NCBI GenBank assembly: GCA_965213705.1
Contig: OZ243913.1
Coordinates: forward strand, 864,001-928,000
Origin: Trueperaceae bacterium
GTDB lineage: Bacteria; Deinococcota; Deinococci; Deinococcales; Trueperaceae
Direction of reading: 5' to 3'
Length of the DNA stretch: 64,000 nt
Below are positions 4,918 through 51,414 of this stretch, in pieces. The position numbers were made by a program, and so were the translations under genes. Within the stretch, counting starts at the first letter, position 1; each line of letters opens with the position of its first letter. Below the pieces are notes generated by a model. The model did no database searches. It had not been told where the DNA came from and was given only the letters and a program-made list of their open reading frames with translations.

Positions 4918-5058
4918 GAGTACCGAGGACCGAGTCGAAAGTACCGAGTTGCATTCGCACTTGGATGTTTGTTGATTTTACCGATCCATCGTTACGTGCT
5001 CGAGCCCCACAAGTCTCTTCTTTTTTACTCGGTACTCGTCACTAGGTACTCGGTACTC
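4918..5058. repeat. Heptamer (GTACCGA-type) array, forward and reverse arms
   Basis: gtaccgaggaccgagtcgaaagtaccgagt at 4920-4949; actcggtactcgtcactaggtactcggtact at 5027-5057. Confidence 0.8.
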
Positions 5059-19170: not shown

Positions 19171-20013
19171 TCACGCCATCTGCCGCTGCGACACCACGCT
19201 TTCTTCCGGCACCATGCGCTCGCCGATTTTGGCGGCGGCGATGTAGAGCACGACCGCTGCGCCGATTTTGTTGACCATGTCGGCCACCGTAAAGGCGATG
19301 TGTACCCAGTTGAGCGACAAACCCGGCGCGAGCGCGGGCAGCATGTAGCCGATGGGGTAAACGCCCCACGTGGTCACGGTCGCAAAGGCCAACCACTTGT
19401 AGGCGGTGCGTTCCTCGGGTTTGGCGTCCGCGCCGTGGCGGCGGTAAAGGCTGAACAGGATGATGGGGATGAAGACGTAACCTATCGTCGAGACAAAGCC
19501 CCAAAAGTAAAGCCTGCCGTTTAAGTAGTTGCCCGTCGCGGTGAACTGCTGCTCGCCGATGTACCCCGTGACAATCATAAACAGGTCGGCCAACAAGAGC
19601 AGCGCGAGCGCGCCCTTGATGTTTTTGGGTTTGATGCGCAGGGTCATGACGGTTTTTAAGAGCAGTAGCGGCGTCGTGATAAACCAGTCGATGTAGCGGT
19701 ACTGGCCGATTGCCAAAAATGAGTCGCGCACGAGCGTTTGCCGCGCGGCCGCGTCGGGGGTGTTGGCGAGTTCCACCAACATCGAGTGGTAATACTGGTG
19801 AATGAAAAAGTAAGACACCCCGGCCACGCCCACGATGACCGCCGAGAGCACAATCGAGTCGCGGTGCTCGGGCGCAATTCGGTCACGGTTCGAAAGTGCC
19901 CACACGAATGTACCTGCAAAACCGAATACGGAGACGAAAAGAGCGTAGTTGGTGATGGCGGCGAGTAGCCCCACCGACGCCGCCGTCGGAATAAACTGGT
20001 CTGCAAAACGCAT
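19171..20013 (-). CDS. Microbial (type 1) rhodopsin, DTK motif
   Basis: Seven hydrophobic segments; helix C YRYIDWFITTPLLLLK; helix F WGVYPIGY; helix G ADMVNKIG (retinal Lys). Confidence 0.95.
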   Translation of the reverse strand: MRFADQFIPTAASVGLLAAITNYALFVSVFGFAGTFVWALSNRDRIAPEHRDSIVLSAVIVGVAGVSYFFIHQYYHSMLVELANTPDAAARQTLVRDSFLAIGQYRYIDWFITTPLLLLKTVMTLRIKPKNIKGALALLLLADLFMIVTGYIGEQQFTATGNYLNGRLYFWGFVSTIGYVFIPIILFSLYRRHGADAKPEERTAYKWLAFATVTTWGVYPIGYMLPALAPGLSLNWVHIAFTVADMVNKIGAAVVLYIAAAKIGERMVPEESVVSQRQMA

Positions 20014-21422: not shown

Positions 21423-23372
21423 CTACCGAACTTCACTCCCACTCGCAATATCTCTGTCTAGCGCAGACACGCTCAGGTTTCCTTCATCGTCCTCGGCGGC
21501 CAGAATCATCCCCTGCGACTCGACGCCGCGCAGTTTCACGGGTTTGAGGTTGGCGACGATGATGACTTTTTTGCCGGTCAACTCTTCGGGCTTGTACCAC
21601 TGCCGGATGCCCGAAACAATCGTGCGCTCTTCCGAACCGAGCTTCACGCTCAAAACGAGGAGTTTGTCGGCCTTCGGGTGCGGCTCGCACTTGACGACCT
21701 CGGCGACGCGGAACTCGAGCCTCGCAAAGTCCTCAATCGTCACCTCGTCCTTGTGCTCGAGGGGCGTTTCCTCGCGCAACACGTCTTTCATAAGCGCCTC
21801 CAAGTCGATGCGCGGGAAAAGCGGGTCGCCGGGTTGGGTCTTCGTGTCGGCGGGCGTGTCGCCCCACACGGCGGCTTTGTTCAGGTCGTAGTAGAGGGTC
21901 TCGAGCCCGAGCTGCTTACGCAACTCCTGCGCCTTGGTCGGAATCACCGGGTCGAGGAGGATGGACGCGACGCGCAAGCCCTCGACGCAGTTGTACAGCA
22001 CCGTGTTCAAGCGCTCGGCGTCGGCCTCGTCTCGAGCCAGCACCCAGGGCTGCGTCTCGGCGATGTACTTGTTCGCCTTGCGCACAGCTTCCAACACGCT
22101 CTCGATGGCGCGGTCGAACTGGAGGTCGTCGAACTGCTGCGTGACGGTTGCGGGGAGGGCAACAAAGGCGTCGCGTAGCGCCTCGTCGGTGGGCTCGAGC
22201 GCGCCCGGCCCCTTCACCACGCCGCCCCGGTACTTGCCGAGCATCCCGAGCGTGCGGTTGAGCAAGTTGCCTAAGTCGTTCGCCAGGTCCGAGTTGATGC
22301 GCTCGGCCAGCCCCACCTCGCTGAACGAAGCGTCCAGCCCGAAGGTCATGTCGCGCAACAGGTAGTAGCGAAAGGCGTCGTTGCCGTACTTGTCTTTCAA
22401 GTCCAGGGGCCGCACCACGTTCCCTTTAGACTTGCTCATCTTGCCGCCGTCCACCAACCAGTAACCGTGGACGTTGAGGTGCTGGTAAATCGGCAAGCCC
22501 GCCGCTTTCAGCATCGTCGGCCAAAAGACGCCGTGGGGTTTCAAGATGTCCTTGGCGATAAAGTGCTCGACGTGGGGCCAGTAGCGCTCGGTCAAACTTT
22601 GGCTCTCGAGGGCCGAGAAATAGTTGATGAGCGCGTCGAACCACACGTAAGTCACGTGGTTTTCGTCCCACGGGAGCGGGATGCCCCAGGGCACGCGGCT
22701 TCGGGGGCGGCTTATCGAGAGGTCGCCGATGGGCTCGCGCAGGATGCCTAAAACCTCGTTTTTGTAGCGCTCGGGCCGGATGAAGTCCGGGTTTTGCTCG
22801 ATGTAGTCTTTCAGCCAGGGGCGGTACTTTTCCATGCGGAAAAAGTAGTTTTCTTCCGACCGGTACTCGAGCCTTATGTCGTGCTGCGGACACTTGCCGT
22901 CGACGAGTTCTTTCTCGGTGTAGTAGCGCTCGCAGCCGACGCAGTACAAGCCGCCGTACTCGCCGAAGATGATGTCGCCGGAGTCGTAAACGCGCTGGAG
23001 GATTTCACTGACGACTTTTTTGTGCCGCGCCTCGGTCGTGCGGATGAACTCGTCGTAGTGGATGCCCAGGTCGTCCCAAACCGCGCGGAACTGCCCTGAA
23101 ATCCGGTCGGTGTAGGCCTGCGGACTCAAGCCGGCGGCCTCGGCGGCTTTTTGTACCTTTTCGCCGTGCTCGTCGGTGCCGGTCAGGAAATAGGTGTCGT
23201 CGCCCTTGAGCCGGTGAAGCCTCGTCACCACGTCAACGAGCGTCGTCGTGTAGGCGTGGCCGATGTGCGGCTCGGCGTTGACGTAAAAGATGGGCGTGGT
23301 GGCGTAGTAGATGGTTTGGTTTGGGTCGGCGGGACTCGCGTCTTCCGGTTTGGGCTGTGTCTCCGTGGTCAT
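21423..23372 (-). CDS. metG: Methionyl-tRNA synthetase with C-terminal tRNA-binding domain
   Basis: HIGH, CVGC zinc knuckle, YVWFDAL, KMSKS, HPKADKL...SQGMIL; AGGAG RBS before ATG 23372. Confidence 0.97.
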   Translation of the reverse strand: MTTETQPKPEDASPADPNQTIYYATTPIFYVNAEPHIGHAYTTTLVDVVTRLHRLKGDDTYFLTGTDEHGEKVQKAAEAAGLSPQAYTDRISGQFRAVWDDLGIHYDEFIRTTEARHKKVVSEILQRVYDSGDIIFGEYGGLYCVGCERYYTEKELVDGKCPQHDIRLEYRSEENYFFRMEKYRPWLKDYIEQNPDFIRPERYKNEVLGILREPIGDLSISRPRSRVPWGIPLPWDENHVTYVWFDALINYFSALESQSLTERYWPHVEHFIAKDILKPHGVFWPTMLKAAGLPIYQHLNVHGYWLVDGGKMSKSKGNVVRPLDLKDKYGNDAFRYYLLRDMTFGLDASFSEVGLAERINSDLANDLGNLLNRTLGMLGKYRGGVVKGPGALEPTDEALRDAFVALPATVTQQFDDLQFDRAIESVLEAVRKANKYIAETQPWVLARDEADAERLNTVLYNCVEGLRVASILLDPVIPTKAQELRKQLGLETLYYDLNKAAVWGDTPADTKTQPGDPLFPRIDLEALMKDVLREETPLEHKDEVTIEDFARLEFRVAEVVKCEPHPKADKLLVLSVKLGSEERTIVSGIRQWYKPEELTGKKVIIVANLKPVKLRGVESQGMILAAEDDEGNLSVSALDRDIASGSEVR

Positions 23373-23390
23373 CTTCGTTCTCCTAACGGC

Positions 23391-23423
23391 AAAAAAAGAA
23401 GGGCGCTTTCGCAAAAGCGCCCC
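23391..23423 (-). terminator. Intrinsic terminator in the metG leader
   Basis: Minus strand gggcgcttt tgcg aaagcgccc followed by ttcttttttt, about 20 nt before the metG start. Confidence 0.8.
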
Positions 23424-23443
23424 GTAACGACTAGGTTGAAAAC

Positions 23444-23482
23444 CTATCCGACTCCAGGGCAAAGTTGCATCAGTCGCTTCAT
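23444..23482 (-). promoter_or_regulatory. Putative metG leader peptide MKRLMQLCPGVG*
   Basis: TATACT (23489-23494) 6 nt before the ATG; two Met codons; followed by hairpins and the terminator. Confidence 0.55.
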
Positions 23483-23634
23483 AGGGCAAGTATAGCAGAC
23501 CTTTGGAACGCGCGTGCTGTAGGCGTTTGCCGACTCGAGATACTGGGTGGCGGCGTAGCAAGCGGTGGCGGTTACTCCGGCTCGTCCCTTACAAAGCTAC
23601 AATCGGACTATGTTTTTCAGAAGAGGTGACCCCC

Positions 23635-24240
23635 ATGACAAACGTTGAAATTCCCGATATTTCCCGAACCGAACGCCTCGAGCTGCCCGCCCCCCGCACC
23701 GCCTTAATCGTCGTGGACATGCAAAACGACTTCGCCCACCCCGACGGAACGCTTTACGGCGAGGACGCGACGCGCGTCATCCCAACCATTCAAGGACTGC
23801 TCGAAAAGGCTCGAGCCGCGGGCATGCGCGTCATCTTTACCCAGGACTGGCACGGTGACGCCGACCCCGAGTTCGAGATTTGGGGCGAGCACGCTCTAGC
23901 CGATACCTGGGGCGCGGAGATTGTGGAGGGCTTGGAGCCGCGCGACGATGAAACCCGCATCCGTAAACTTCGCTACGACGCGTTTTACGGCACGTCTTTG
24001 GAGCACCTGCTAAACCTCTGGGGCATCACCCACACCGTCATCGTCGGCACCGTCGCCAACATCTGCGTGCTCCACACGGCGGGCTCGGCGGCGCTGCGCT
24101 ATCTGGACGTGGTCGTCCCCGAAGACGCGGTCGCCGCACTCACAGATTTCGACAAGGAAAGCGCGCTGCGGCAGGTGACTTTCCTCTACCGCGGTGAGGT
24201 CACGAAAGCCGACGGCATCACTTTCGTCCAATCAGCGTGA
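23635..24240 (+). CDS. Isochorismatase-family cysteine hydrolase, nicotinamidase-like
   Basis: VVDMQNDF, metal ligands QDWH and WGEH, catalytic K (IRK) and C (ANICV). Confidence 0.85.
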   Translation: MTNVEIPDISRTERLELPAPRTALIVVDMQNDFAHPDGTLYGEDATRVIPTIQGLLEKARAAGMRVIFTQDWHGDADPEFEIWGEHALADTWGAEIVEGLEPRDDETRIRKLRYDAFYGTSLEHLLNLWGITHTVIVGTVANICVLHTAGSAALRYLDVVVPEDAVAALTDFDKESALRQVTFLYRGEVTKADGITFVQSA

Positions 24241-24923
24241 GGGAGGTTCAAGGCGTCCTGTTCGATATGGACGGCCTGCTCCTCGATAGCGAGCGATTGT
24301 ATTTAGAGGCGACTCGGCAGGCATTCGAGGAGCACTCGTTCGATTTTCAAACAGATGCGTACTTAGAGTGCATCTGTACACCTGACGTGGAAGCGGTGAA
24401 GATTATGCGCACGGCTTACGATGACACTTTGCCCGTTGAGAAAGTGATGGCTCGAGCTGCGGAACTCTACAGGAAGCGCGTACATTCGGAACCCGTGCCG
24501 CTCAAAGAAGGTTGTTTGGAGTTGTTGGGCTTTTTGGAAGAGAACGACATCAAGTGCGCGGTCGTCACTTCGACGCGCACCGAACTGGCTGAGCACAAGC
24601 TGCGGCTTGCCGGAATTCACGACGCGTTTTCTTTTGTTATAGGTGGCGACCAGGTGACGCGCAGCAAACCCGCGCCGGACATCTACCTCCGCGGCGTCGA
24701 AAAAATGGGTGTTCCGGTTGAAGCCTGCCTCGCTCTGGAAGATTCGGAAAACGGCGTGCGGGCGGCGGTGGTGGCGGGTCTGCAGGTCGTTCAGGTGCCG
24801 GATTTGAAAGCGCCGTCGGACGAATTCTTGACGTTGGGCCATGAGGTTCTACCTTCGCTCAGGGCAGTTAAGGATTATTTGGCGGGGTTGGGAAGCGTTT
24901 CGGTTGATACATACAGCGTTTGA
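24237..24923 (+). CDS. HAD family phosphatase
   Basis: FDMDGLLLDSE, VVTST, KPAPDIY, LEDSENG. Confidence 0.92.
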   Translation: MREVQGVLFDMDGLLLDSERLYLEATRQAFEEHSFDFQTDAYLECICTPDVEAVKIMRTAYDDTLPVEKVMARAAELYRKRVHSEPVPLKEGCLELLGFLEENDIKCAVVTSTRTELAEHKLRLAGIHDAFSFVIGGDQVTRSKPAPDIYLRGVEKMGVPVEACLALEDSENGVRAAVVAGLQVVQVPDLKAPSDEFLTLGHEVLPSLRAVKDYLAGLGSVSVDTYSV

Positions 24924-24991
24924 CTCACCCCTGCCTCCCCTTTGAGGGTAGGTGCCGAAGGGTGGAGGGCTCGAGGGTCGGATTGAAACCT

Positions 24992-25591
24992 TCAAGCCTC
25001 CACCAACGCCCCGAAGTCGATTTCAGCCGCGGGCCGCACGTCGGCCTTCAGCACGCGCTCCATAATCCGCAGCGCCTCGTCGCCATAGTCGTCACGCTCC
25101 GCCGCCACGCAGTCGGGCGGGACGACGAGCTTGAAGTCCTGCATGTAGGCGTCGTTGGCGGTGAACAGCACGCAGATGTCGGTGGCGACGCCGCAGAGGA
25201 TAAGCGTTTCGACGCCCAAGTCGCGCAGCAGCGTGTAGAGCGAGGTGAGAAAGAAGCCCGAGTGTTTCGGTTTGAGGACGAAGTAGTCGTCCTCTTCGGG
25301 CCGCAAAAGCTCGACCATTCGTTTGCCGGGCGTGTCGCCCAAGCAGTACTCGACGACGCGGGTAAAGTCGCTCTGCCAGCGCCCGAAGTTGTCGTTGACG
25401 TAGACCACCGGTACCCCGGCGATTTTGGCGCGGCATTTCAGGTCGGCAATCGTCTCAGCTACCGGCAGGGCGCGTTCCAGCAAGTTTTCAGCGCCTTCAA
25501 ACTCGAGCGGGTTGATAACGTCGATAAGCAAAAGTGCGACGACGGACTCGTCGGCTTTGTCGTGGTGCAAGGCTTTCGGGTCTCTCGGCAT
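24992..25591 (-). CDS. Isochorismatase-family cysteine hydrolase (YaaI-like)
   Basis: LIDVIN, YVNDNFG, KPKHSGF, GVATDICV. Confidence 0.88.
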   Translation of the reverse strand: MPRDPKALHHDKADESVVALLLIDVINPLEFEGAENLLERALPVAETIADLKCRAKIAGVPVVYVNDNFGRWQSDFTRVVEYCLGDTPGKRMVELLRPEEDDYFVLKPKHSGFFLTSLYTLLRDLGVETLILCGVATDICVLFTANDAYMQDFKLVVPPDCVAAERDDYGDEALRIMERVLKADVRPAAEIDFGALVEA

Positions 25592-25751
25592 GGTTGCCCC
25601 CTGGGCTTTATCAAAAAACCGCCCGGCGAAAAGAACCGTATCCCGACGCACCTTCTACCGTAGGACGACGCTGGAAACGCGTGCGGACAAGCTGATATTC
25701 TCGGCTTATGCACCTTCCCTGAGCAGGGGAGCGGAGGAGAACAGGCTTTTG

Positions 25752-25808
<57 letters not shown>

Positions 25809-25810
25809 CC

Positions 25811-27946
25811 ATGAACCTCGTCACCCTCGCCACCTGCAACTTAAACCAGTGGGCGCTCGACTTCGGCGGCAACTTGGAGCGCATCGCCGCGTCCATCCGC
25901 GTCGCTAAAGAGCGCGGCGCGCGCTACCGGCTCGGGCCGGAGTTGGAGATTCCGGGTTACGGCTGCCAGGACGCTTTTTTAGAGGGCGACACGATTCGCC
26001 ACTCGTGGGAGTGCTTGGCGGAAATCTTGGACAGCGACCTCACCGACGACCTCCTCTGCGATGTCGGGATGCCCGTGCTGCACCGCGACGTGCGCTACAA
26101 CTGCCGGGTGTTTTTGCTGAACCGGAAAATCCTCCTCATCCGTCCGAAGATGGCGCTGGCCCAGGACGGCAACTACCGCGAGGCGCGCTACTTCGCCGCC
26201 TGGGCACATACACGCCACACCGAGGAGCACGTGCTGCCGCGCATGATTCGTGAGATTACGGGACAGGCTACTGTGCCGCTAGGCGACGCGGCCGTCGCCA
26301 CGCTCGACACGGTCGTCGCTGCCGAGACCTGTGAAGAACTGTTCACGCCGGACAGTCCGCACATCCATCTCGGACTCGACGGGGTCGAGATTATCAGCAA
26401 CGGCTCGGGCTCGCACCACGAACTGCGCAAGCTGCAAAAACGGGTCGACCTCATCCTGAGTGCGTCGGCGAAGGGGGGCGGCGTGTACCTTTACGCCAAC
26501 CAGCAAGGCTGCGACGGCGGGCGGCTGTACTTCGACGGCTGCGCCCTCATCGCGGTGAACGGGCGGGTGGTGGCACAGGGCTCACAGTTCTCGCCTCGAG
26601 ACGTCGAGGTCGTCACCGCGACCGTCGATTTGGAAGAGGTGCGTTCGTTCCGCGCGGGCTTTATCAGCCGCATGGTGCAGGGCAGCGAAGCGCCGCCGGT
26701 GCCGCGGGTCTACACGGACTTCGAACTGACCGAACGGGGTTTCTCGCGCGGCCCGAGCCCGGTAGTCGCGCTGAAGTTCCACACGCCGGAAGAAGAAATC
26801 GCCCTCGGCCCGGCCTGCTGGCTGTGGGACTACCTGCGGCGTTCTAGCCTGGGCGGTTTTTTCCTACCGCTTTCGGGCGGCTCGGACTCGGCGGCGGTGG
26901 CGGCGCTGGTGGGTTCGATGTGCCAGCTCGTGGTGCGTGAGGCGCGGGCGGGCAACGAAACCGTCAGCGCGGACGCGCGCCGCATTACCGGGCAGGGCGA
27001 CGACTGGACGCCGGACGACCCCCAGGCCCTCGCTCACGCCCTGCTCCACACCTGTTACATGGGGACGGAAAACTCGTCTAAAGCTACGCGCGCTCGAGCC
27101 AAGCGCCTCGCCGCAGAAATAGGTGCTTACCACCTCGATGTGGACATCGACCAGATTATCTCAGCCTGGCGCACTACCTTCGAAACTCTAACCGATAAGC
27201 GCCCGCGCTTCAAAACGGCGGGCGGCACGAACGCCGAAAACCTCGCACTGCAAAACATTCAGGCGCGCAGCCGCATGGTGCTGGCCTATTTTCTGGCGCA
27301 ACTGTTGCCCTGGGTGCGCGGCCGAGAGGGTGGCCTGCTCGTCCTCGGCACCTCGAACGTGGACGAGGCGTTGCGCGGCTACATGACGAAGTACGACGCG
27401 AGTTCGGCCGACATCAACCCCATCGGCTCGGTGTCAAAAACGGACTTGCGGAGGTTTTTGCGCTGGGGCGTTGAAAACCTCGGCTATGAAAGTTTGTTGG
27501 AAATCGTTGAAGCCGTCCCGACCGCGGAACTCGAGCCCACCACCGAAACCTATACTCAGTCCGACGAGGCCGATATGGGCATGACTTATGAAGAGTTGTC
27601 CGTCTTCGGGCGGTTGCGCAAAGTGGACAAGTGCGGCCCGGTGGCGATGTTCGAACACCTGGTGTTCGCCTGGGACTACTTGAGCCCGGCGGAGGTGGCC
27701 GAAAAGGTGAAGCGGTTTTTCTTCTACTACGCCATCAACCGCCACAAGGCGACCGTCTTGACGCCCGCCTACCACGCCGAAAGCTACTCGCCCGACGACC
27801 ACCGTTACGACCTCCGGCAGTTTCTCTACAACGCCCGCTGGACCTGGCAGTTTCGGAAAATCGACCGATTGGTGGAGGAGATTGAAGGCTCGAGGCCGAA
27901 CGACAAAGCGTCCTCGGCTCCGGGTTTGCAAAGGGAAGACGAGTGA
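25811..27946 (+). CDS. nadE: Glutamine-dependent NAD+ synthetase, eukaryote-type (Qns1/NADSYN1-like)
   Basis: Nitrilase-fold glutaminase triad (GPELE, RPKM, ETCEE); SGGSDS PP-loop; [21 protein letters not shown]. Confidence 0.95.
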
Positions 27947-28046
27947 GTCCAGCTCTTTTTTACCAAGCCCTCGAGCACGACCTTTTTCTCTTCTTTTCCC
28001 CTTCCCAAAGGAGTGCGCTCGAGCGCAGCGCCGAGCGAGGGGTTTC

Positions 28047-28619
28047 ATGAGGCTCGGCCTTTACGGCGGCCGCTTCGACCCGCCGCACTTAGGTCACCTC
28101 CTCGTCGCGGAAGGGGCGCGGGCGACCCTCGAGTTAGACCGCGTCTTCTTCATCCCCAGCAAAACCCCGCCGCACAAAGGAACCGAGGCGAGTGCGCAAG
28201 CGCGTTATGAGATGACCCTGCTCGCCACCGCCGAGAACCCCCACTTTTTTGTACTGGACTTGGAACTGAAACGCGAAGGCACCTCTTACAGCGTCGACAC
28301 CGTCGAAACGCTGCTCGAAGCGTACCCGGACGCCGAAATTTTCTACCTGACCGGCGTCGACGCTTACCAGGACATCGCTACCTGGCAGCGCGCTCGAGAC
28401 CTCGTTACAAAAGTGCAGATGGTCGCCTACCCGCGGCCCGGTTACAGCCTGGACGGGCTCGAGCCCCACTTTTCAGACCGCGTTAAGCTTTTGGAGTTGC
28501 CGCTGTTCGAGGTCTCGAGCACAGCCATAAGACAGCGTTTGCGAACGGGGGAGAGCGTGCGCTACTTGCTGCCGGACGCCGTCATGGCTTATGTTGAAAA
28601 ACATACCCTTTACCGCTGA
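28047..28619 (+). CDS. nadD: Nicotinate-nucleotide adenylyltransferase
   Basis: YGGRFDPPHLGH, TPPHK, SYSVDT, VSSTAIR. Confidence 0.94.
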   Translation: MRLGLYGGRFDPPHLGHLLVAEGARATLELDRVFFIPSKTPPHKGTEASAQARYEMTLLATAENPHFFVLDLELKREGTSYSVDTVETLLEAYPDAEIFYLTGVDAYQDIATWQRARDLVTKVQMVAYPRPGYSLDGLEPHFSDRVKLLELPLFEVSSTAIRQRLRTGESVRYLLPDAVMAYVEKHTLYR

Positions 28620-28730
28620 TGTCGCAAGGTCAGCGGTCGCACAGTAGGCAGCCTCACAGTTGGCGGTTTTACAGCCGGTACCCTTTCCGGACAGCCGACA
28701 AGGTCGGGGGACCGAGTTCAACCTGCCCGT

Positions 28731-29969
28731 TCACCGTACCCCCGCGGTCGTACAAACTTGTCGAGTCTCAGACAGCGCGGTGAGTGGTAACCGCATAGAC
28801 ATCCGCTGCCCACCGCGCAGCACGACCACGTCGCACAGGCGACCGGCGGCACCGACCACGGCGTCGGTCTTTTTCGCTTGGTCGACACCTGTCGGCGTGT
28901 CCACGGCCGCGTCTCGGACCGCCACGATAACGTCGCCTCCCAACAGCCAGCGCGCGCCGCCGTAGTCCACGGGGCGCGACCCCCCCAAAAGGCCGGCCTG
29001 AGCGGCCGCACCGCCCGGCACGACGTTGAGCACCAGCCAGCCCTCGTCGGGCATACCGTACAGAACCTGCACACTTCTGGGTAAGTCGCGCACGTCGACC
29101 CCCGTCATGGCGGTGCTCATGGTGGCGCTCGGACGCTGCAGGGGCTCGGGCGACGACCCGGGTACCGGAGTTGGTACCAGGGCCAACCCCGCCAAACGCT
29201 CGAGCAGCGGCTGAATCGGCACAGCCAAGCTGACCCCGGCAAAGCTGTCGCCGCTGGGATTGTAAATCGCTGTGGCGACGCCCACAACCTCCCCCTGAGC
29301 CGTGAGCAGCGGCCCGCCCGAGCTGCCCTGGTTGAGGGCGGCGTCGGTCTGAATCATGGGCGGAAACTCACCCGGGAACTGTCGGTTCAACGCCGAAACG
29401 GTCCCGGTGGTTACCGAACCGCTCAGGCCGAAAGGGTGGCCGATAAGGATGACCTTCTGGCCGAGTTGCAAACCGTCTGTTTTGGTCAAGGGGATAGGCG
29501 GAACGTCGGGTACCGCGTCGGGCTCTACGGGTTCCAACAGCGCCATGTCCCACTCGGGCAGCGCGTACCTTTCCCGCACGCTCAAGGTGGTGCGGGGCTG
29601 CGACCCTGCAAAAGTGACCTTGAGTTCGACAGCCTCCTCCAAACCGGGTTGGGCCGCGTTTTTGGAATGCACGACGTGGTAGCTCGTCACGATGTAAGGC
29701 CGACCGGACAGGTGCACCAGAAAGCCGCTTCCGCCGCGCACGGCGGCAGGTCCGGGTGTGTTTGCGAGCGACACGTTCGCTGTCACGCGCGCGGCCGGAA
29801 AAACGCTGACGCCGACGACGCTCGCCTGGTAGCGCCCCGCCACCTCGACCGTGTTGGCTTCGTACTCGAGCAGCGCCCGCGTCTCGTCGTAGGGAGCAGA
29901 CGGTTGAGCCGCAGCCCAGCCCAAAAGGCTGAATAGGGTGAGGTTAAGAAAAAGTAGGTGACGTCGCAT
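28731..29969 (-). CDS. S1C (HtrA/DegP-like) trypsin peptidase with PDZ domain
   Basis: Signal peptide; GSGF, TSYHVV, DMALL, IQTDAALNQGSSGGPL; PDZ PGGAAAQAGL. Confidence 0.88.
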   Translation of the reverse strand: MRRHLLFLNLTLFSLLGWAAAQPSAPYDETRALLEYEANTVEVAGRYQASVVGVSVFPAARVTANVSLANTPGPAAVRGGSGFLVHLSGRPYIVTSYHVVHSKNAAQPGLEEAVELKVTFAGSQPRTTLSVRERYALPEWDMALLEPVEPDAVPDVPPIPLTKTDGLQLGQKVILIGHPFGLSGSVTTGTVSALNRQFPGEFPPMIQTDAALNQGSSGGPLLTAQGEVVGVATAIYNPSGDSFAGVSLAVPIQPLLERLAGLALVPTPVPGSSPEPLQRPSATMSTAMTGVDVRDLPRSVQVLYGMPDEGWLVLNVVPGGAAAQAGLLGGSRPVDYGGARWLLGGDVIVAVRDAAVDTPTGVDQAKKTDAVVGAAGRLCDVVVLRGGQRMSMRLPLTALSETRQVCTTAGVR

Positions 29970-30133
29970 AAGAGGCAAGTGTGAAGAACTTAACACCCGC
30001 AGTTTAACGCTTCAAGTGGACGAGGTCGGTGACCGTTGCAAGCTGTGTACTACAACCTTGCAGGAAACGAGTACGAACCCCCTTGCCTTGGGAGCGCGCG
30101 GGCAAGAGGTTCGCCTCGACAGACCTCAGGGTT

Positions 30134-30334
30134 TAATACCCTTTCCGGTTCATGACCTCGGTTAACCCGAGCCGACAGTCCTGAACCAGCGGAACTATCG
30201 GTGACGGTTTAACGCTCAGCCGTTAAAATCACAACCTATGGTTCAGGACTGTCCAGCGAGAAGAAACTGTCGCGGATTCCGGTGAGCCGAAAAACCTCTT
30301 TACGTCTAACAGGTGTACTACCGGAATCCGTATA
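30134..30334. mobile_element. SNR-like repeat / putative IS630-type MITE, copy 2, with nested module
   Basis: ataccctttccgg...gagaagaaactgtcgcggatt...ccggaatccgtat; insert 30174-30253 bounded by the 15-bp IR gacagtcctgaacca. Confidence 0.85.
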
Positions 30335-30415
30335 AACTGCGCACTTCAGGCGCGAGGCGGGGTCTTGGTCTGCGCGAGGTTTTGTGGCTGGGAAGTGCTC
30401 GAAGGCGTTTGCGTT

Positions 30416-31024
30416 TCAGCTGCGAGCGCGGCGCAAGGGCCGGCTTTTTTTCGGCGGTGCCACCGCGATACGCTGCCGCAGTTGGGGTTTGTCGAGGATG
30501 GCCTTGGCTAGCTTTTCGTTACCTTGAGCTTTGGCCTCGGCAATTTGAGACTCGAGCGCGAACAGCTCATAGGCTAACGCCGTTTCCAACCCTTTGCGAC
30601 GGGCACCCGCAGAGACGTCCTCGAGAAATTGGTCCAGTTTCACGCACAGGTAAAAGGGCAACTCGGATGACATGCCCCAATGTAGCCCCAGTCCGCTGCC
30701 CGGTTGTCGGCAGTCGTCACAGGCCGGGCAAGCGGTAGGGGCGGCCGGACCACCCTGGCACAGCCGTCATGCACGCCGTCGGAGCGTGTCGCCTTTTTGC
30801 TGGGCAGAGGTACACCCGCCACCGGTTTGGCAGCGCGAGGCCGGAACACGCACACCGTCGAGGTGAAGGTTATGTAGGCACGTGTGGAACGGCTCGCGCT
30901 GGTGGAGACGTGTGACGCTCAGAAAGGTCCTTCGGAGGTAGAACGCTCGGCTCTCAGCTCGAACGGCCGCAGGCTCGAGCCCTGCCTCCAAAGATTTTTG
31001 CCACCTTTTTAGCGCCGCCGTCAC
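30416..31024 (-). pseudogene. Cys-rich hypothetical reading frame interrupted by one in-frame TGA (30767-30769)
   Basis: ORFs 30767-31024 and 30416-30673 share a frame; the region between reads *RLCQGG...CPACDDC. Confidence 0.3.
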
Positions 31025-31194
31025 CGACTTGCGCTAGTATGCGTTAGGGAGGACCCAGTGCAACAACCGTGTTTTCTCAGTTCTCGCAATCCGACTCTCC
31101 CCGTCGTTTCCTGCGCTTGTATGATGGCGCGCGGTCACGTCAGCCTCCGTTGCGCCGTAGAAGAGGGTGGGTTCGGCCGCGGTCTCGAGCCGGC

Positions 31195-32232
31195 ATGACG
31201 ACAGTCCGCAAAGACACCAAATACGCAACGCGCAAGGACAACCTGGCGCTGTGGGGCGGCGTCCTCTTCAGCTTGCTGTTCACCCTGCTCGTTTGGGGCC
31301 TGGGCGGACGCTTGGAAAGCGTGCGTCTTTTGCCCGACCAGGGGGCGGCTTGGTACTACTGGAAGCTCCCCAACCCCACCTTCTGGAGCCGCGCGAGCGC
31401 CTGGGGCTTGTATCTCGCCCATCAGCTCGCCATTTGGGGCACTATCTTTTACGCGCAGACGCGGGTGCGGCGCTACGCTAAAGGGCTTCACCGCGTCAAC
31501 TTCGTCGCGCTCTCACTCAACGCGCTTTTCGTCGCGTTGCACCTCGTACAGACGCACCTGTGGTACGACGGGCTGGCCCAGGACACCAGCGTTTTTTCGT
31601 CCCAGGGCTCGGTCATCGTGCTCTTGGTCTGGGTCTTGCTGATGGAAAACCGGCGGCGCGGCCTGCTGTTCGGCTGGAAGGCCCCCTTGGGTGCGCAGAT
31701 CATGGACTTCGCGCGGCGGTATCACGGTTACTTTTTCGCCTGGGCAATCATCTACACGTTCTGGTTTCACCCGATGGTGGCGACGAGCGGCCACCTCGTC
31801 GGCTTGTTCTACACGCTGCTGCTCATGCTTCAGGGCAGCCTGATGTTTACGCCCGCGCACACCAACCGCTACTGGACGTTCTTTTTGGAGGTCATCGTCT
31901 TGGTTCACGGCACCCTGGTCGCCGTGATGCAGGCTAACGGCCTCTGGCCGATGTTCTTTTTCGGCTTCGCGGGCATTTTCGTCATCACGCAGATGCACGG
32001 TCTGGGTCTTTCCAAGTGGGTAAGGGGCGCTATCCTGGCGGGGTACATCGGCGGGGCGCTCTGGGTCTACAACAGCCGCGGCTTTGACAAGCTCAACGAA
32101 ATCGTGCGCATTCCGCTGATAGACTACCTGGCCGTACTCGTGCTGGCCGGATTGTTTGGGGTAGGGTTGTGGACAGTGCGGCGGCTGCGCGGCGCTTTTT
32201 CCGCGCGGCCCCGGGACCTGGGAGCGCCCTGA
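31195..32232 (+). CDS. Multi-pass membrane protein of unknown function
   Basis: About 9 hydrophobic segments rich in His/Trp; genome-like codon usage; ATG 31195. Confidence 0.8.
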   Translation: MTTVRKDTKYATRKDNLALWGGVLFSLLFTLLVWGLGGRLESVRLLPDQGAAWYYWKLPNPTFWSRASAWGLYLAHQLAIWGTIFYAQTRVRRYAKGLHRVNFVALSLNALFVALHLVQTHLWYDGLAQDTSVFSSQGSVIVLLVWVLLMENRRRGLLFGWKAPLGAQIMDFARRYHGYFFAWAIIYTFWFHPMVATSGHLVGLFYTLLLMLQGSLMFTPAHTNRYWTFFLEVIVLVHGTLVAVMQANGLWPMFFFGFAGIFVITQMHGLGLSKWVRGAILAGYIGGALWVYNSRGFDKLNEIVRIPLIDYLAVLVLAGLFGVGLWTVRRLRGAFSARPRDLGAP

Positions 32233-35203: not shown

Positions 35204-37585
35204 TCACCTTGCCACAAAGTTAGACAGCAGCTTAACGTACGCCGCCTGGTAGTAGATAGCGGGCTCGGTAATTTCCCACGGTGACGCGGAGGCGGTGTTC
35301 CAATCGCGGTAGGCTTTTTGCGCGGGCTCGCCCGCAGGCGGCGCGGCTCGCCCGGAATAAGCTGCGTTCGGGCCGCCCGTCACGTAACCCGGAGCCGGAC
35401 CCCGCTCGCTCGTCCGGGCGTTGTCCCAAACAGAGCCGTCACGAAACCAGTCGTGCCACATCTCGGCGGCTGAATACTCCGCGCCGTACTCGACCATGTT
35501 GGTCAGGTAAACCATGTTGAGCGGGTTCACCCCGTGCAGGTAGTGGACGATGCCGAGGGCTTTTTCCCTGTAAGTCTCACTCGCACCGGCGTCGAGGTTG
35601 TAGTGAAGCATGTCGAGGTTGGTGTTGCCGAGCGCGGCGCGGACGTAGTTGCTGCCCCAGTGGTAAGACGCTTGGGGCAAGTAGGCGCGGTAGAGGTCTT
35701 GGTCGGGCTGAAACCCGTAGAGTTCGGTGGAGGTTAGGGTGGCTTGCTCGAGCTTCGCGTTCAGGATGGTCTGCGCCAGCTCGGGGTCGGCGTCTTCCAG
35801 GGTCGTGTAGTAAAGCAGTGCGTCACCCTGGTCGGGGTTGTACATCGACCACCTCAGGGCATGTTCGTCGTTGAAGGGGTTGGTGCTTCGGTAAGTCGCC
35901 TGAAGCGCCGCCTGGTAAACCCGTTCGCCCGTTAGGGCGTAGAGGTACACGGCGGCTACCGCCTGGGTCGCGTCTTGCTCGTTCAGAGTCCAGTCGGCGT
36001 CGCCCGCTTTAATCTCACCCGTGTCGCAGTCTTCGCGGCGCTCGTTGTTCACGTACCAGTCGTAAGCGCGCGCCGCACGTTTTCCTAAGTCGGCGGCGTA
36101 GTCGCTCAGCTTTTCAAACTGCTCGAACACAAGCGCCCCGTGCGCGAACATGCTGGCGGCGGCGATGCTCGAGCTTGAACAGACAGGCGCGTAGTAGCGG
36201 GGCCGCGCGTCCTCAGACGGAGGCGAAACGGAGTTGTAGTCGATGTTGCCGACCTTGATAAGCACGCCGCCATTGTCAAGCTGCATCTTTTTGAGCCAGT
36301 CGAACTCCCACAGAAGTTCGTCTATCAGGTCGGGAAGACCGTTGCCCGATTCGGGAATGCCAAAGGCGTCGGTGAAGGCGTTGGGGTTTTGTTCGTAAGC
36401 GCTTAGCAGCGTGTGAACGGGCGCGTGGGCGAAAGTCACGTACTTGTTGTAGTCGCCCGCGTCGAACCAGCCGCCGGAGAGGTCTCGGGCCGTGTCCGGG
36501 TTCTCCTTGGCCTCGACGAAACGCGCCTCGGTGTCCTGGCCCGGCCCCAAAAAGCTTTTGCCGTCCGTCCAGCGGGGGTCGGCGTAAGGCTCCTCTTTCG
36601 CCGTGTTGGCGCGGTTGTAGTAAAACATGCGCGTGGCGGCTTTCAGCACTTCGTCGTAAACGTCCTCAGCAATTTCAAACTCATGGGAACGTGCGTCTTT
36701 TTCAACGTCGTAAACGTAGTAGTTTCCTGGCTCGCTGACGTTACTAAAGTCGAACCACCAGCCCCTATCACCGGAGGTTTCTTGCACCGCCCCGTCCTGC
36801 CAGGCTTCGGGAGCGCTGGAGAAGACGGTGAAACCGTCTTCTCTTCTAACCTCGAGCACCGCCCCCGGCACGTACTCGTCTTGGGCGTTGAAGCCCGTTT
36901 GTGGGTCGACCAACACCGCGACCTTGGCGTCATTGGGACGGTAGCCGAACTGGTCGACCACGATGTAGGGAGTCTCGCGTCCGCCCGTCACCGGGACCTC
37001 GGACAACGTGAAGTTGTCAAAACAGACTTTGACCGGTGTGTCTGGGTTGAGGGAGCCGCCCAGAAACAGCTCGAGCGCCAAGTCGCTGGCCCGCACCTCG
37101 ACGTCCAGGCTGTAACGGCGCGGCGCGGGCCCGACCGGCTGCACTTGGTAAAAATATTCGGCGTAGGGTGCGCCTGCTTGACCGATTTTTACGCCGACCG
37201 CGGCGTCTTTGTCGGCGTAGGCTTCAAAACCCAAAGAGTAAGTTTGGCCTGCCAGGTTCAACCCGGCTTGGCGTAACGTGACGCTCCAGGGATTTTCCCC
37301 GCCGGCGTTTACCACGGCGCAGTAGGCGCCGCCGGTCACGCCGCCTTTGGCTTCGGCAGGCGCGTAGACGCCGAACGACCAGTTTGCGTCGCTGTGGTCG
37401 AAGTTTGGATTCCGAAAGAGGTTTGCGCCCGCTTGCGCCGCGCCGTTCTCGGTGAGGGTGTTTACTGAGGTCCGCTCGTCGGTCTTGGTAACCGTGCCAA
37501 ACTCCTGCACGGTCAAACTGTTCAGAGTTTGGACGCTGGGCGTCAGCGCGAGCAGCGCGAGTCCTATCAACAGGTGAATGGTCAT
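35204..37585 (-). CDS. Secreted glycoside hydrolase family 9 with CBM4/9-like and Ig-like domains
   Basis: Signal peptide; NLFRNPNFD...CFDNFTL (CBM); VDQFGY (Ig-like); GGWFDAGDYNKY; WEITEPAIYYQA. Confidence 0.88.
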   Translation of the reverse strand: MTIHLLIGLALLALTPSVQTLNSLTVQEFGTVTKTDERTSVNTLTENGAAQAGANLFRNPNFDHSDANWSFGVYAPAEAKGGVTGGAYCAVVNAGGENPWSVTLRQAGLNLAGQTYSLGFEAYADKDAAVGVKIGQAGAPYAEYFYQVQPVGPAPRRYSLDVEVRASDLALELFLGGSLNPDTPVKVCFDNFTLSEVPVTGGRETPYIVVDQFGYRPNDAKVAVLVDPQTGFNAQDEYVPGAVLEVRREDGFTVFSSAPEAWQDGAVQETSGDRGWWFDFSNVSEPGNYYVYDVEKDARSHEFEIAEDVYDEVLKAATRMFYYNRANTAKEEPYADPRWTDGKSFLGPGQDTEARFVEAKENPDTARDLSGGWFDAGDYNKYVTFAHAPVHTLLSAYEQNPNAFTDAFGIPESGNGLPDLIDELLWEFDWLKKMQLDNGGVLIKVGNIDYNSVSPPSEDARPRYYAPVCSSSSIAAASMFAHGALVFEQFEKLSDYAADLGKRAARAYDWYVNNERREDCDTGEIKAGDADWTLNEQDATQAVAAVYLYALTGERVYQAALQATYRSTNPFNDEHALRWSMYNPDQGDALLYYTTLEDADPELAQTILNAKLEQATLTSTELYGFQPDQDLYRAYLPQASYHWGSNYVRAALGNTNLDMLHYNLDAGASETYREKALGIVHYLHGVNPLNMVYLTNMVEYGAEYSAAEMWHDWFRDGSVWDNARTSERGPAPGYVTGGPNAAYSGRAAPPAGEPAQKAYRDWNTASASPWEITEPAIYYQAAYVKLLSNFVAR

Positions 37586-51158: not shown

Positions 51159-51317
51159 GGCAAGCTCCTCGGCAAAGCGTACTCTAAAGTTCGGGTTGTA
51201 AAGGTTGGAGGTGACCGGTCTACGTTAAGCCCGACATCGCTTCAGGTTGGCTTGGAGAGGCGTGGTCACGCGCCAAGTGTAGCACGCGGAAGTTCGGGGC
51301 GAAGCGGTCGTTCCAAC

Positions 51318-51414
51318 AGTACCGAGTACCGAGTGGACAGTACCGAGTACCGAGTGAACAGTACCGAGTGAGCAATACCGAGTCAAAGCCACTTTCGACG
51401 CTGGACTCGGTACT
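51318..51414. repeat. Longest GTACCGA-type heptamer array (21-nt higher-order unit)
   Basis: (gtaccga gtaccga gtgRaca) x2, gtaccga gtgagca ataccga; short reverse arm actcggtact. Confidence 0.85.

Follow-up and report, generated by a model that had tools for sequence, protein, structure and literature searches.

The window, a stretch of 64,000 nucleotides, contains a single uninterrupted, intact reading frame at 25811-27946. Judging from its domains and active-site residues, the 711-aa product is almost certainly a glutamine-dependent NAD synthetase (NadE) acting at the final salvage step. The gene lies among the following features.

23638..24240, + strand: isochorismatase-family hydrolase (PF00857), pncA-like and a probable nicotinamidase judging from its neighbourhood
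24237..24923, + strand: HAD-family phosphatase (domain match; position kept in the sister genome)
24992..25651, − strand: second isochorismatase-family hydrolase, divergent from nadE (domain match; position kept in the sister genome)
25754..25810, + strand: 7-bp pyrimidine-rich tandem repeat directly 5' of the nadE start codon, part of a dispersed repeat
25811..27946, + strand: nadE, predicted eukaryote-type two-domain glutamine-dependent NAD synthetase, 711 aa (ORF, domain searches, PDB comparison)
25826..26653, + strand: nitrilase-type glutaminase domain of NadE, residues 6-281 (PF00795, 127.5 bits)
26819..27598, + strand: synthetase domain of NadE, residues 337-596, with the SGGSDS loop at residues 355-360 (PF02540, 94.5 bits; TIGR00552, 91.3 bits against a cut-off of 63.65)
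28047..28619, + strand: nadD, nicotinate-nucleotide adenylyltransferase (NF000840, 207.6 against a cut-off of 150; TIGR00482, 177.5 against 112)

Relationship of the window NadE to known NAD synthetases

A sequence-only reading of this DNA had described an intronless 711-aa gene for a eukaryote-type enzyme, and both parts of that description held. All five motifs that it quoted occur in the translation, and a phmmer comparison with the PDB gave 929.5 bits to 6OFB, covering residues 4-697, versus 216 bits to the best bacterial structure, 3ILV, and 76-80 bits to the M. tuberculosis chains. We took 6OFB as the human enzyme (NADSYN1, hsNadE) because its residues fit the numbering in the available passages of PMC6946656; those of PMC3376133 identify 3ILV as the enzyme of Cytophaga. 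The scores against the NCBI models of long bacterial NadE lay far under the cut-offs (PRK02628, 132.8 against 473; PRK13981, 115.8 against 479). In a protein atlas, 89-97% of the neighbours of the window NadE belonged to Eukaryota, and the protein did not cluster with ordinary bacterial NadE. Named yeast orthologues, a set to which Qns1 itself does not belong, showed 62-63% identity over residues 150-553.

The window NadE is collinear with human NADSYN1 over residues 4-697, with gaps of only one residue. The catalytic residues E44 (codon at 25940), K113 (26147), and C174 (26330), together with the second glutamate E124, align with human E45, K114, C175, and E125. The residue map obtained by alignment also showed Y122 and H202 (human Y123 and H203), D529, and H645 to be retained. 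Human Tyr123 and His203 are described as eukaryote-conserved in the passages of PMC6946656 available to us. H202 is also present in 3/3 branch I rows, so that only the tyrosine discriminates there. The window gene differs from its human counterpart in its bacterial host, its lack of introns, and its adjoining nadD. The protein carries Ala530 in place of Cys531, where the human tunnel ends; alanine at this position was also found in 4/35 eukaryotic rows and 8/27 Chloroflexota.

The accessible parts of PMC3376133 assign the eukaryotic glutamine-dependent NAD synthetases to branch II of type F, and the window NadE is of that type. Bacterial branch I of type F (Cytophaga 3ILV; Spirosoma, Hymenobacter, and Vibrio) has the two-domain layout, the triad, and H202 in common with it and is the nearest ordinary bacterial family, yet the identity is only 29-32%, compared with 58-65% to slow-evolving eukaryotes. 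Branch I differs at Y122 (His in 3/3 rows), D529, and H645, and several segments are missing. The M. tuberculosis NadE and the PRK02628 and PRK13981 families have the same reaction and domain order, at only the 76-80 bits given above. The short NadE of other Trueperaceae and of Deinococcus radiodurans performs the same pathway step with a single domain of about 280 aa, and its gene adjoins pncA and pncB in some genomes.

Host chromosome and predicted NAD route

The genome consists of one contig, 98% complete and with 1.2% contamination. A sister genome of the same Trueperaceae genus encodes a 93% identical NadE and keeps the order metG, pncA-like gene, HAD phosphatase, isochorismatase-family hydrolase, nadE, nadD. 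Contigs from the likely source sample span 22000-31000 with even depth across the flanks, one of them matches 23716-27813 without any difference, and a relative from another study extends across 25391-26184. Together with host-like codons, these observations make an assembly chimera or contamination exceedingly improbable. At the 25754-25810 repeat, which is 18 bp longer than its sister-genome counterpart, the metagenome contigs showed a depth spike and loose ends. Tandem 7-bp units (ACTTTCT, TACTCGG, AGTACCG) lie between genes at window positions 25754-25810, 5026-5058, and 51315-51383, and a 10-mer from the first unit has 38 copies genome-wide.

In codon-usage distance, nadE ranked at percentile 40 among 272 host ORFs of comparable length, chosen by a composition filter, and its GC3 was 0.814 versus a host median of 0.809, in agreement with the earlier description of the gene as ameliorated. 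The CTCGAG sites pointed out in the same reading are present (four in nadE) and are no mark peculiar to the gene: their density of 1.87 per kb compares with 2.09 per kb genome-wide, which is 6.3 times the base-composition expectation and akin to a highly iterated palindrome, so that they represent a host signature. A bacterial nadD does follow directly downstream, as had been stated, after a gap of 100 bp, and shows 50-58% identity to other Trueperaceae nadD. A promoter scan at the locus returned 0 sites, and terminators appeared there at chance level only. Elsewhere in the window we observed a bacteriorhodopsin-like protein (19171-20013, − strand; PF01036, 113.7 bits), a GH9 glycoside hydrolase with CBM4/9 and CelD_N domains (35204-37585, − strand), and a hydrophobic 387-aa protein that matched nothing in Pfam or NCBIfam (31069-32232, + strand).

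The window nadE is the only nadE found in the genome, and the short single-domain NadE was not found there. The other PF02540 match, considered as a second nadE, is a GMP synthase by its sequence. The genes nadA and nadC were not found in this 98% complete genome; pncB is present elsewhere on the chromosome (C1:24156-25016). The product of 23638-24240 scores 37 against the PncA model, under its cut-off of 174, and owes its pncA label to the neighbourhood of its orthologues, which adjoin short nadE in 5/26 Trueperaceae loci and the long form in L085. The pncB gene adjoins short nadE in 7/26 such loci. The nadD product, NaAD, is the substrate of NadE. These genes suggest a salvage-only route in which nicotinamide would be converted to nicotinate by the putative PncA, to NaMN by PncB, to NaAD by NadD, and finally to NAD by the window NadE; as the end of such a route, the enzyme would be essential.

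In the N-terminal domain, the E44-K113-C174 triad would hydrolyse glutamine and hand the ammonia to the synthetase site. From the similarity in sequence, this transfer probably takes place inside one subunit, as in the human enzyme; the NADSYN1/Qns1 type is characterised by an octamer whose ammonia tunnel runs within the subunit. The human enzyme is reported to use both glutamine and ammonia (PMC6946656, available passages), and by analogy the window NadE may use both as well. The likely gain over the short NadE would be that NAD can be made even when free ammonia is scarce. In one Trueperaceae genus, the long nadE has very probably displaced the native short NadE. The chemistry of the window NadE is ordinary; its history is unusual.

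Carriers of the eukaryote-type enzyme

In a homologue search, 119 of the 120 homologues listed were 69-93% identical to the window NadE. The eight that carried a taxon name among the matches listed were Chloroflexota or Poribacteria, and the sole named eukaryote reached 53%. Over the locus and whole-genome searches and the alignments, identity to the window NadE was 68-74% for named Chloroflexota and 63-71% for Poribacteria. GTDB yielded 219 loci, and the 80 of these that were listed comprised 51 from Poribacteria, 27 from Chloroflexota, one from Trueperaceae, and one without a taxon. A whole-genome search detected the eukaryote-type NadE in 113/121 Poribacteria, so that the bacterial sister clade proposed as one option by the sequence-only reading can hardly be called rare in that phylum. 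Eight genomes of the Poribacteria phylum lacked this type, and ordinary NadE was present in all five that were checked. Among Anaerolineae, 30/142 genomes of the order of Ca. Leptovillus carried it, and in the Chloroflexota set it occurred in 1/401, namely the centre genome. The corresponding figure for Deinococcota was 5/301, all in Trueperaceae, with 0/198 in the other four families. With the window NadE as query, the 101 Trueperaceae genomes divided into four with the long form, 34 with only weak matches to the short NadE (G033 being counted here), and 63 with no match. A separate search with the window nadD found nadD in only 7/30 other Trueperaceae genomes, a hint that many of them may adenylylate by a different route.

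A second Trueperaceae genus, g10, carries a strongly diverged long nadE (L085:886-3027 in G074; also L086 and L155) in the run pncA-like gene, nadE, nadD, pncB. In G074, where this copy is the only nadE found, the catalytic lysine, the cysteine, and the YRE loop are all lost. From these losses, the G074 enzyme is predicted to be ammonia-only. The g10 genomes G009 and G044, 95-98% complete, gave no nadE match. A related protein, P0142, keeps the triad. The divergence of the g10 copy is accompanied by strong GC bias and decay. Its rows drift among the long branches in broad trees and join a Chloroflexota-Trueperaceae cluster once the fast eukaryotes are left out.

Six metagenome loci were found with P0131 and P0156. 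Five of them, encoding three distinct proteins, form a separate clade (SH-aLRT 99-100), and the sixth groups with animals. Members of this second bacterial lineage (L149-L153; P0131, P0156) are 49-64% identical to each other and about 54% identical to the window NadE. Bacterial genes surround these loci: L152 has apt, a nadD-like gene, pncB, and an ORF recognised by eye only as pncA-like; L153 has a CCA enzyme, endonuclease IV, and gapA; and L150 has Fur and a metal-binding protein. Our impression is that L149-L153 look like CPR bacteria. An uninterrupted eukaryote-type NAD synthetase gene was also observed on a giant-virus contig (L122:2890-5193; also L123), and we take several of P0220, P0224, P0225, P0228, P0235, P0159, and P0205 to have termini typical of giant-virus proteins. 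A search of viral contigs for the genomic context of P0265 and P0131 returned none, and the phage collection gave six records, all of them weak partial matches.

Phylogeny and origin of the bacterial genes

Three branch I proteins served as the outgroup in the trees. For the first tree, 77/359 hits were dropped beforehand as partial or intron-broken. Nematode, trematode, ciliate, and fast rows, which form long branches, were left out of several trees and of the first root scan, and P0142, P0156, L150, Toxoplasma, Lygus, Lupinus, and Chondrus were left out of the tree and AU test with both bacterial lineages. No Discoba or Metamonada sequence was identified among the tree rows. Fungi, Opisthokonta, green plants, and red algae each come out well in the gene tree. 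The window NadE joined the Chloroflexota copies in four trees (SH-aLRT 93-97), and its clade adjoins a Caldilineaceae/Anaerolineae cluster (SH-aLRT 91) on a short branch among Chloroflexota. Monophyly of Chloroflexota without the Trueperaceae clade was borderline (p-AU 0.067), and that of Poribacteria was not rejected (p-AU 0.258). The group of Poribacteria, Chloroflexota, and Trueperaceae had supports of 98, 71, 87, and 94 and was lost in one further tree.

The proposed tree check, nested within or sister to eukaryotes, concerns the whole bacterial group rather than the window gene. In seven of seven trees with broad eukaryote samples, the group fell inside the eukaryotes, with a neighbour that varied among Amoebozoa, Opisthokonta, Phalansterium, and Archaeplastida (red algae plus plants). 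An early link to red algae and plants, from a tree in which the bacterial hits ranked just after red algae, disappeared with better eukaryote sampling. The group branches from the base of the eukaryotic radiation on a stem of 0.035-0.065 changes per site, shows only one or two private consensus differences at outgroup-polarised sites, and is separated from other bacterial long NadE by about 10 changes per site. Constraining eukaryotes to be monophyletic cost 5.3 log units with the distant outgroups (p-AU 0.211) and 3.4 log units against both bacterial lineages (p-AU 0.385). The two lineages stay apart in free trees. Identity is 64-73% inside the bacterial group and 55-62% between eukaryotic supergroups.

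The best root among 31 branches was the stem of the second lineage (AU 0.73), followed by other long branches. A non-reversible model placed the best root on a branch within Poribacteria (AU 0.71), with all 51 positions within 8 log units; in neither scan did the differences exceed 10 log units. As a root, the stem of the Poribacteria group received AU values of 0.047 in the outgroup scan and 0.004 under the non-reversible model. When fast eukaryotic or viral rows were added, the outgroup moved onto them. We distrust the root on the second lineage, because the outgroup tracks longer branches and the count of shared outgroup states (2/5 and 5/10, versus 5/7 and 6/11 for Apicomplexa) is no better than in the controls.

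Since the window gene branches among Chloroflexota copies, its immediate donor was probably a bacterium. We consider it highly probable that the short NadE seen in other Trueperaceae gave way to a gene of bacterial provenance, the donor most likely being a carrier of the Anaerolineae type. A direct transfer from a eukaryote into the window genus has the high similarity to eukaryotic enzymes on its side and is nevertheless very improbable: the bacterial relatives are closer than any eukaryote (63-74% versus 58-65%), the window gene pairs with a eukaryote in none of the trees, and to this extent the transfer from a eukaryote suggested by the sequence-only reading is not supported for this lineage. 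The type might instead go back to an early stage of Trueperaceae or Deinococcota, have been lost or displaced in most of their lineages, and have reached Chloroflexota from there, as the far more diverged g10 copy with its order pncA-nadE-nadD and its place in the Chloroflexota-Trueperaceae cluster would allow. We regard this as improbable in view of its presence in only 2/55 genera and 0/198 genomes of the other families, the short branch of the window clade, and the GC bias and decay that go with the g10 divergence.

For the bacterial group as a whole, we lean slightly towards the suggested eukaryote-to-bacterium direction. In this chain, an early eukaryote, or a giant virus that carried the intron-free gene, would long ago have passed it to the ancestor of the main Poribacteria lineage; Anaerolineae and Trueperaceae would have acquired it afterwards, and the second bacterial lineage may have picked it up separately. 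Our reasons are the narrow and patchy spread (113/121, 30/142, 1/401, and 5/301), the ordinary NadE in other genomes of the Poribacteria phylum, the near absence of a stem, and the fact that the two lineages do not join; the uninterrupted copy on the giant-virus contig also counts in favour. The chain is opposed by the non-rejected monophyly of eukaryotes, the unstable eukaryotic neighbour, and the best roots on bacterial branches. A tentative second candidate, to which we give distinctly less weight, is that eukaryotes received their NAD synthetase from a bacterium shortly before LECA and that the Poribacteria-centred group and the second lineage are living relatives of this donor, the window gene remaining a later bacterium-to-bacterium transfer. 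Such a lineage existed if the eukaryotic enzymes are bacterial in origin, as the available parts of PMC3376133 state. The monophyly tests and best root positions fit it, as do the attachment near the Amorphea-Diaphoretickes split, expected for a sister of eukaryotes, the two separate bacterial lineages, some members of both having adjoining salvage genes, and a divergence inside the bacterial group that nears that of eukaryotic supergroups. However, broad samples never gave it as the best tree, the outgroup goes to the longest branch and leaves the bacterial one when fast eukaryotic or viral rows are added, Apicomplexa have at least as many outgroup states in common as the second lineage does, the Poribacteria-group stem is disfavoured as root, and no bacterial intermediates were identified between about 32% and 50% identity.

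According to the available parts of PMC3376133, the eukaryotic branch II is eukaryote-only and derived from bacterial branch I, with a long stem, and the tables there contain no Poribacteria, Anaerolinea, or Truepera. The passages of PMC13468126 covered here place K01950 in ancestral eukaryotic modules, give no donor, and leave Poribacteria unmentioned. We found no report of a eukaryote-type NAD synthetase in these bacteria in the literature searched, which mostly excluded subscription papers, so that an earlier mention is possible. New here are the Trueperaceae recipient, a copy with a dead glutaminase in related members of the family, and the second bacterial lineage, which has the same enzyme beside salvage genes. 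Bacteria of at least three phyla and one further lineage sit on a supposedly eukaryote-only branch. In one reading, an essential eukaryotic housekeeping gene entered bacteria very early, took over from NadE in most Poribacteria, and went on to move from phylum to phylum; in the other, these bacteria point to where the human enzyme came from. Under either reading, the gene ties a bacterial lineage to early eukaryotes in a way that can be dated. If the latter were true, the bacterial and eukaryotic ancestors would have had nearly the same sequence (stem <0.07 changes per site), NAD synthetase would be among the last bacterial genes acquired before eukaryotes diversified, and the donor group would be one not named for this enzyme in the literature searched.

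The bacterial proteins could be useful stand-ins for the tunnel and coupling mechanism of the eukaryotic enzymes, and the putatively ammonia-only Trueperaceae copy would be a natural example of an enzyme that has reverted to ammonia. In the red alga Galdieria phlegrea, the gene model P0367 combines NAD synthetase with a NadD/NMNAT-family nucleotidyltransferase domain and ribosomal L6. This fusion is perhaps a merged gene model, with the final two NAD steps side by side.
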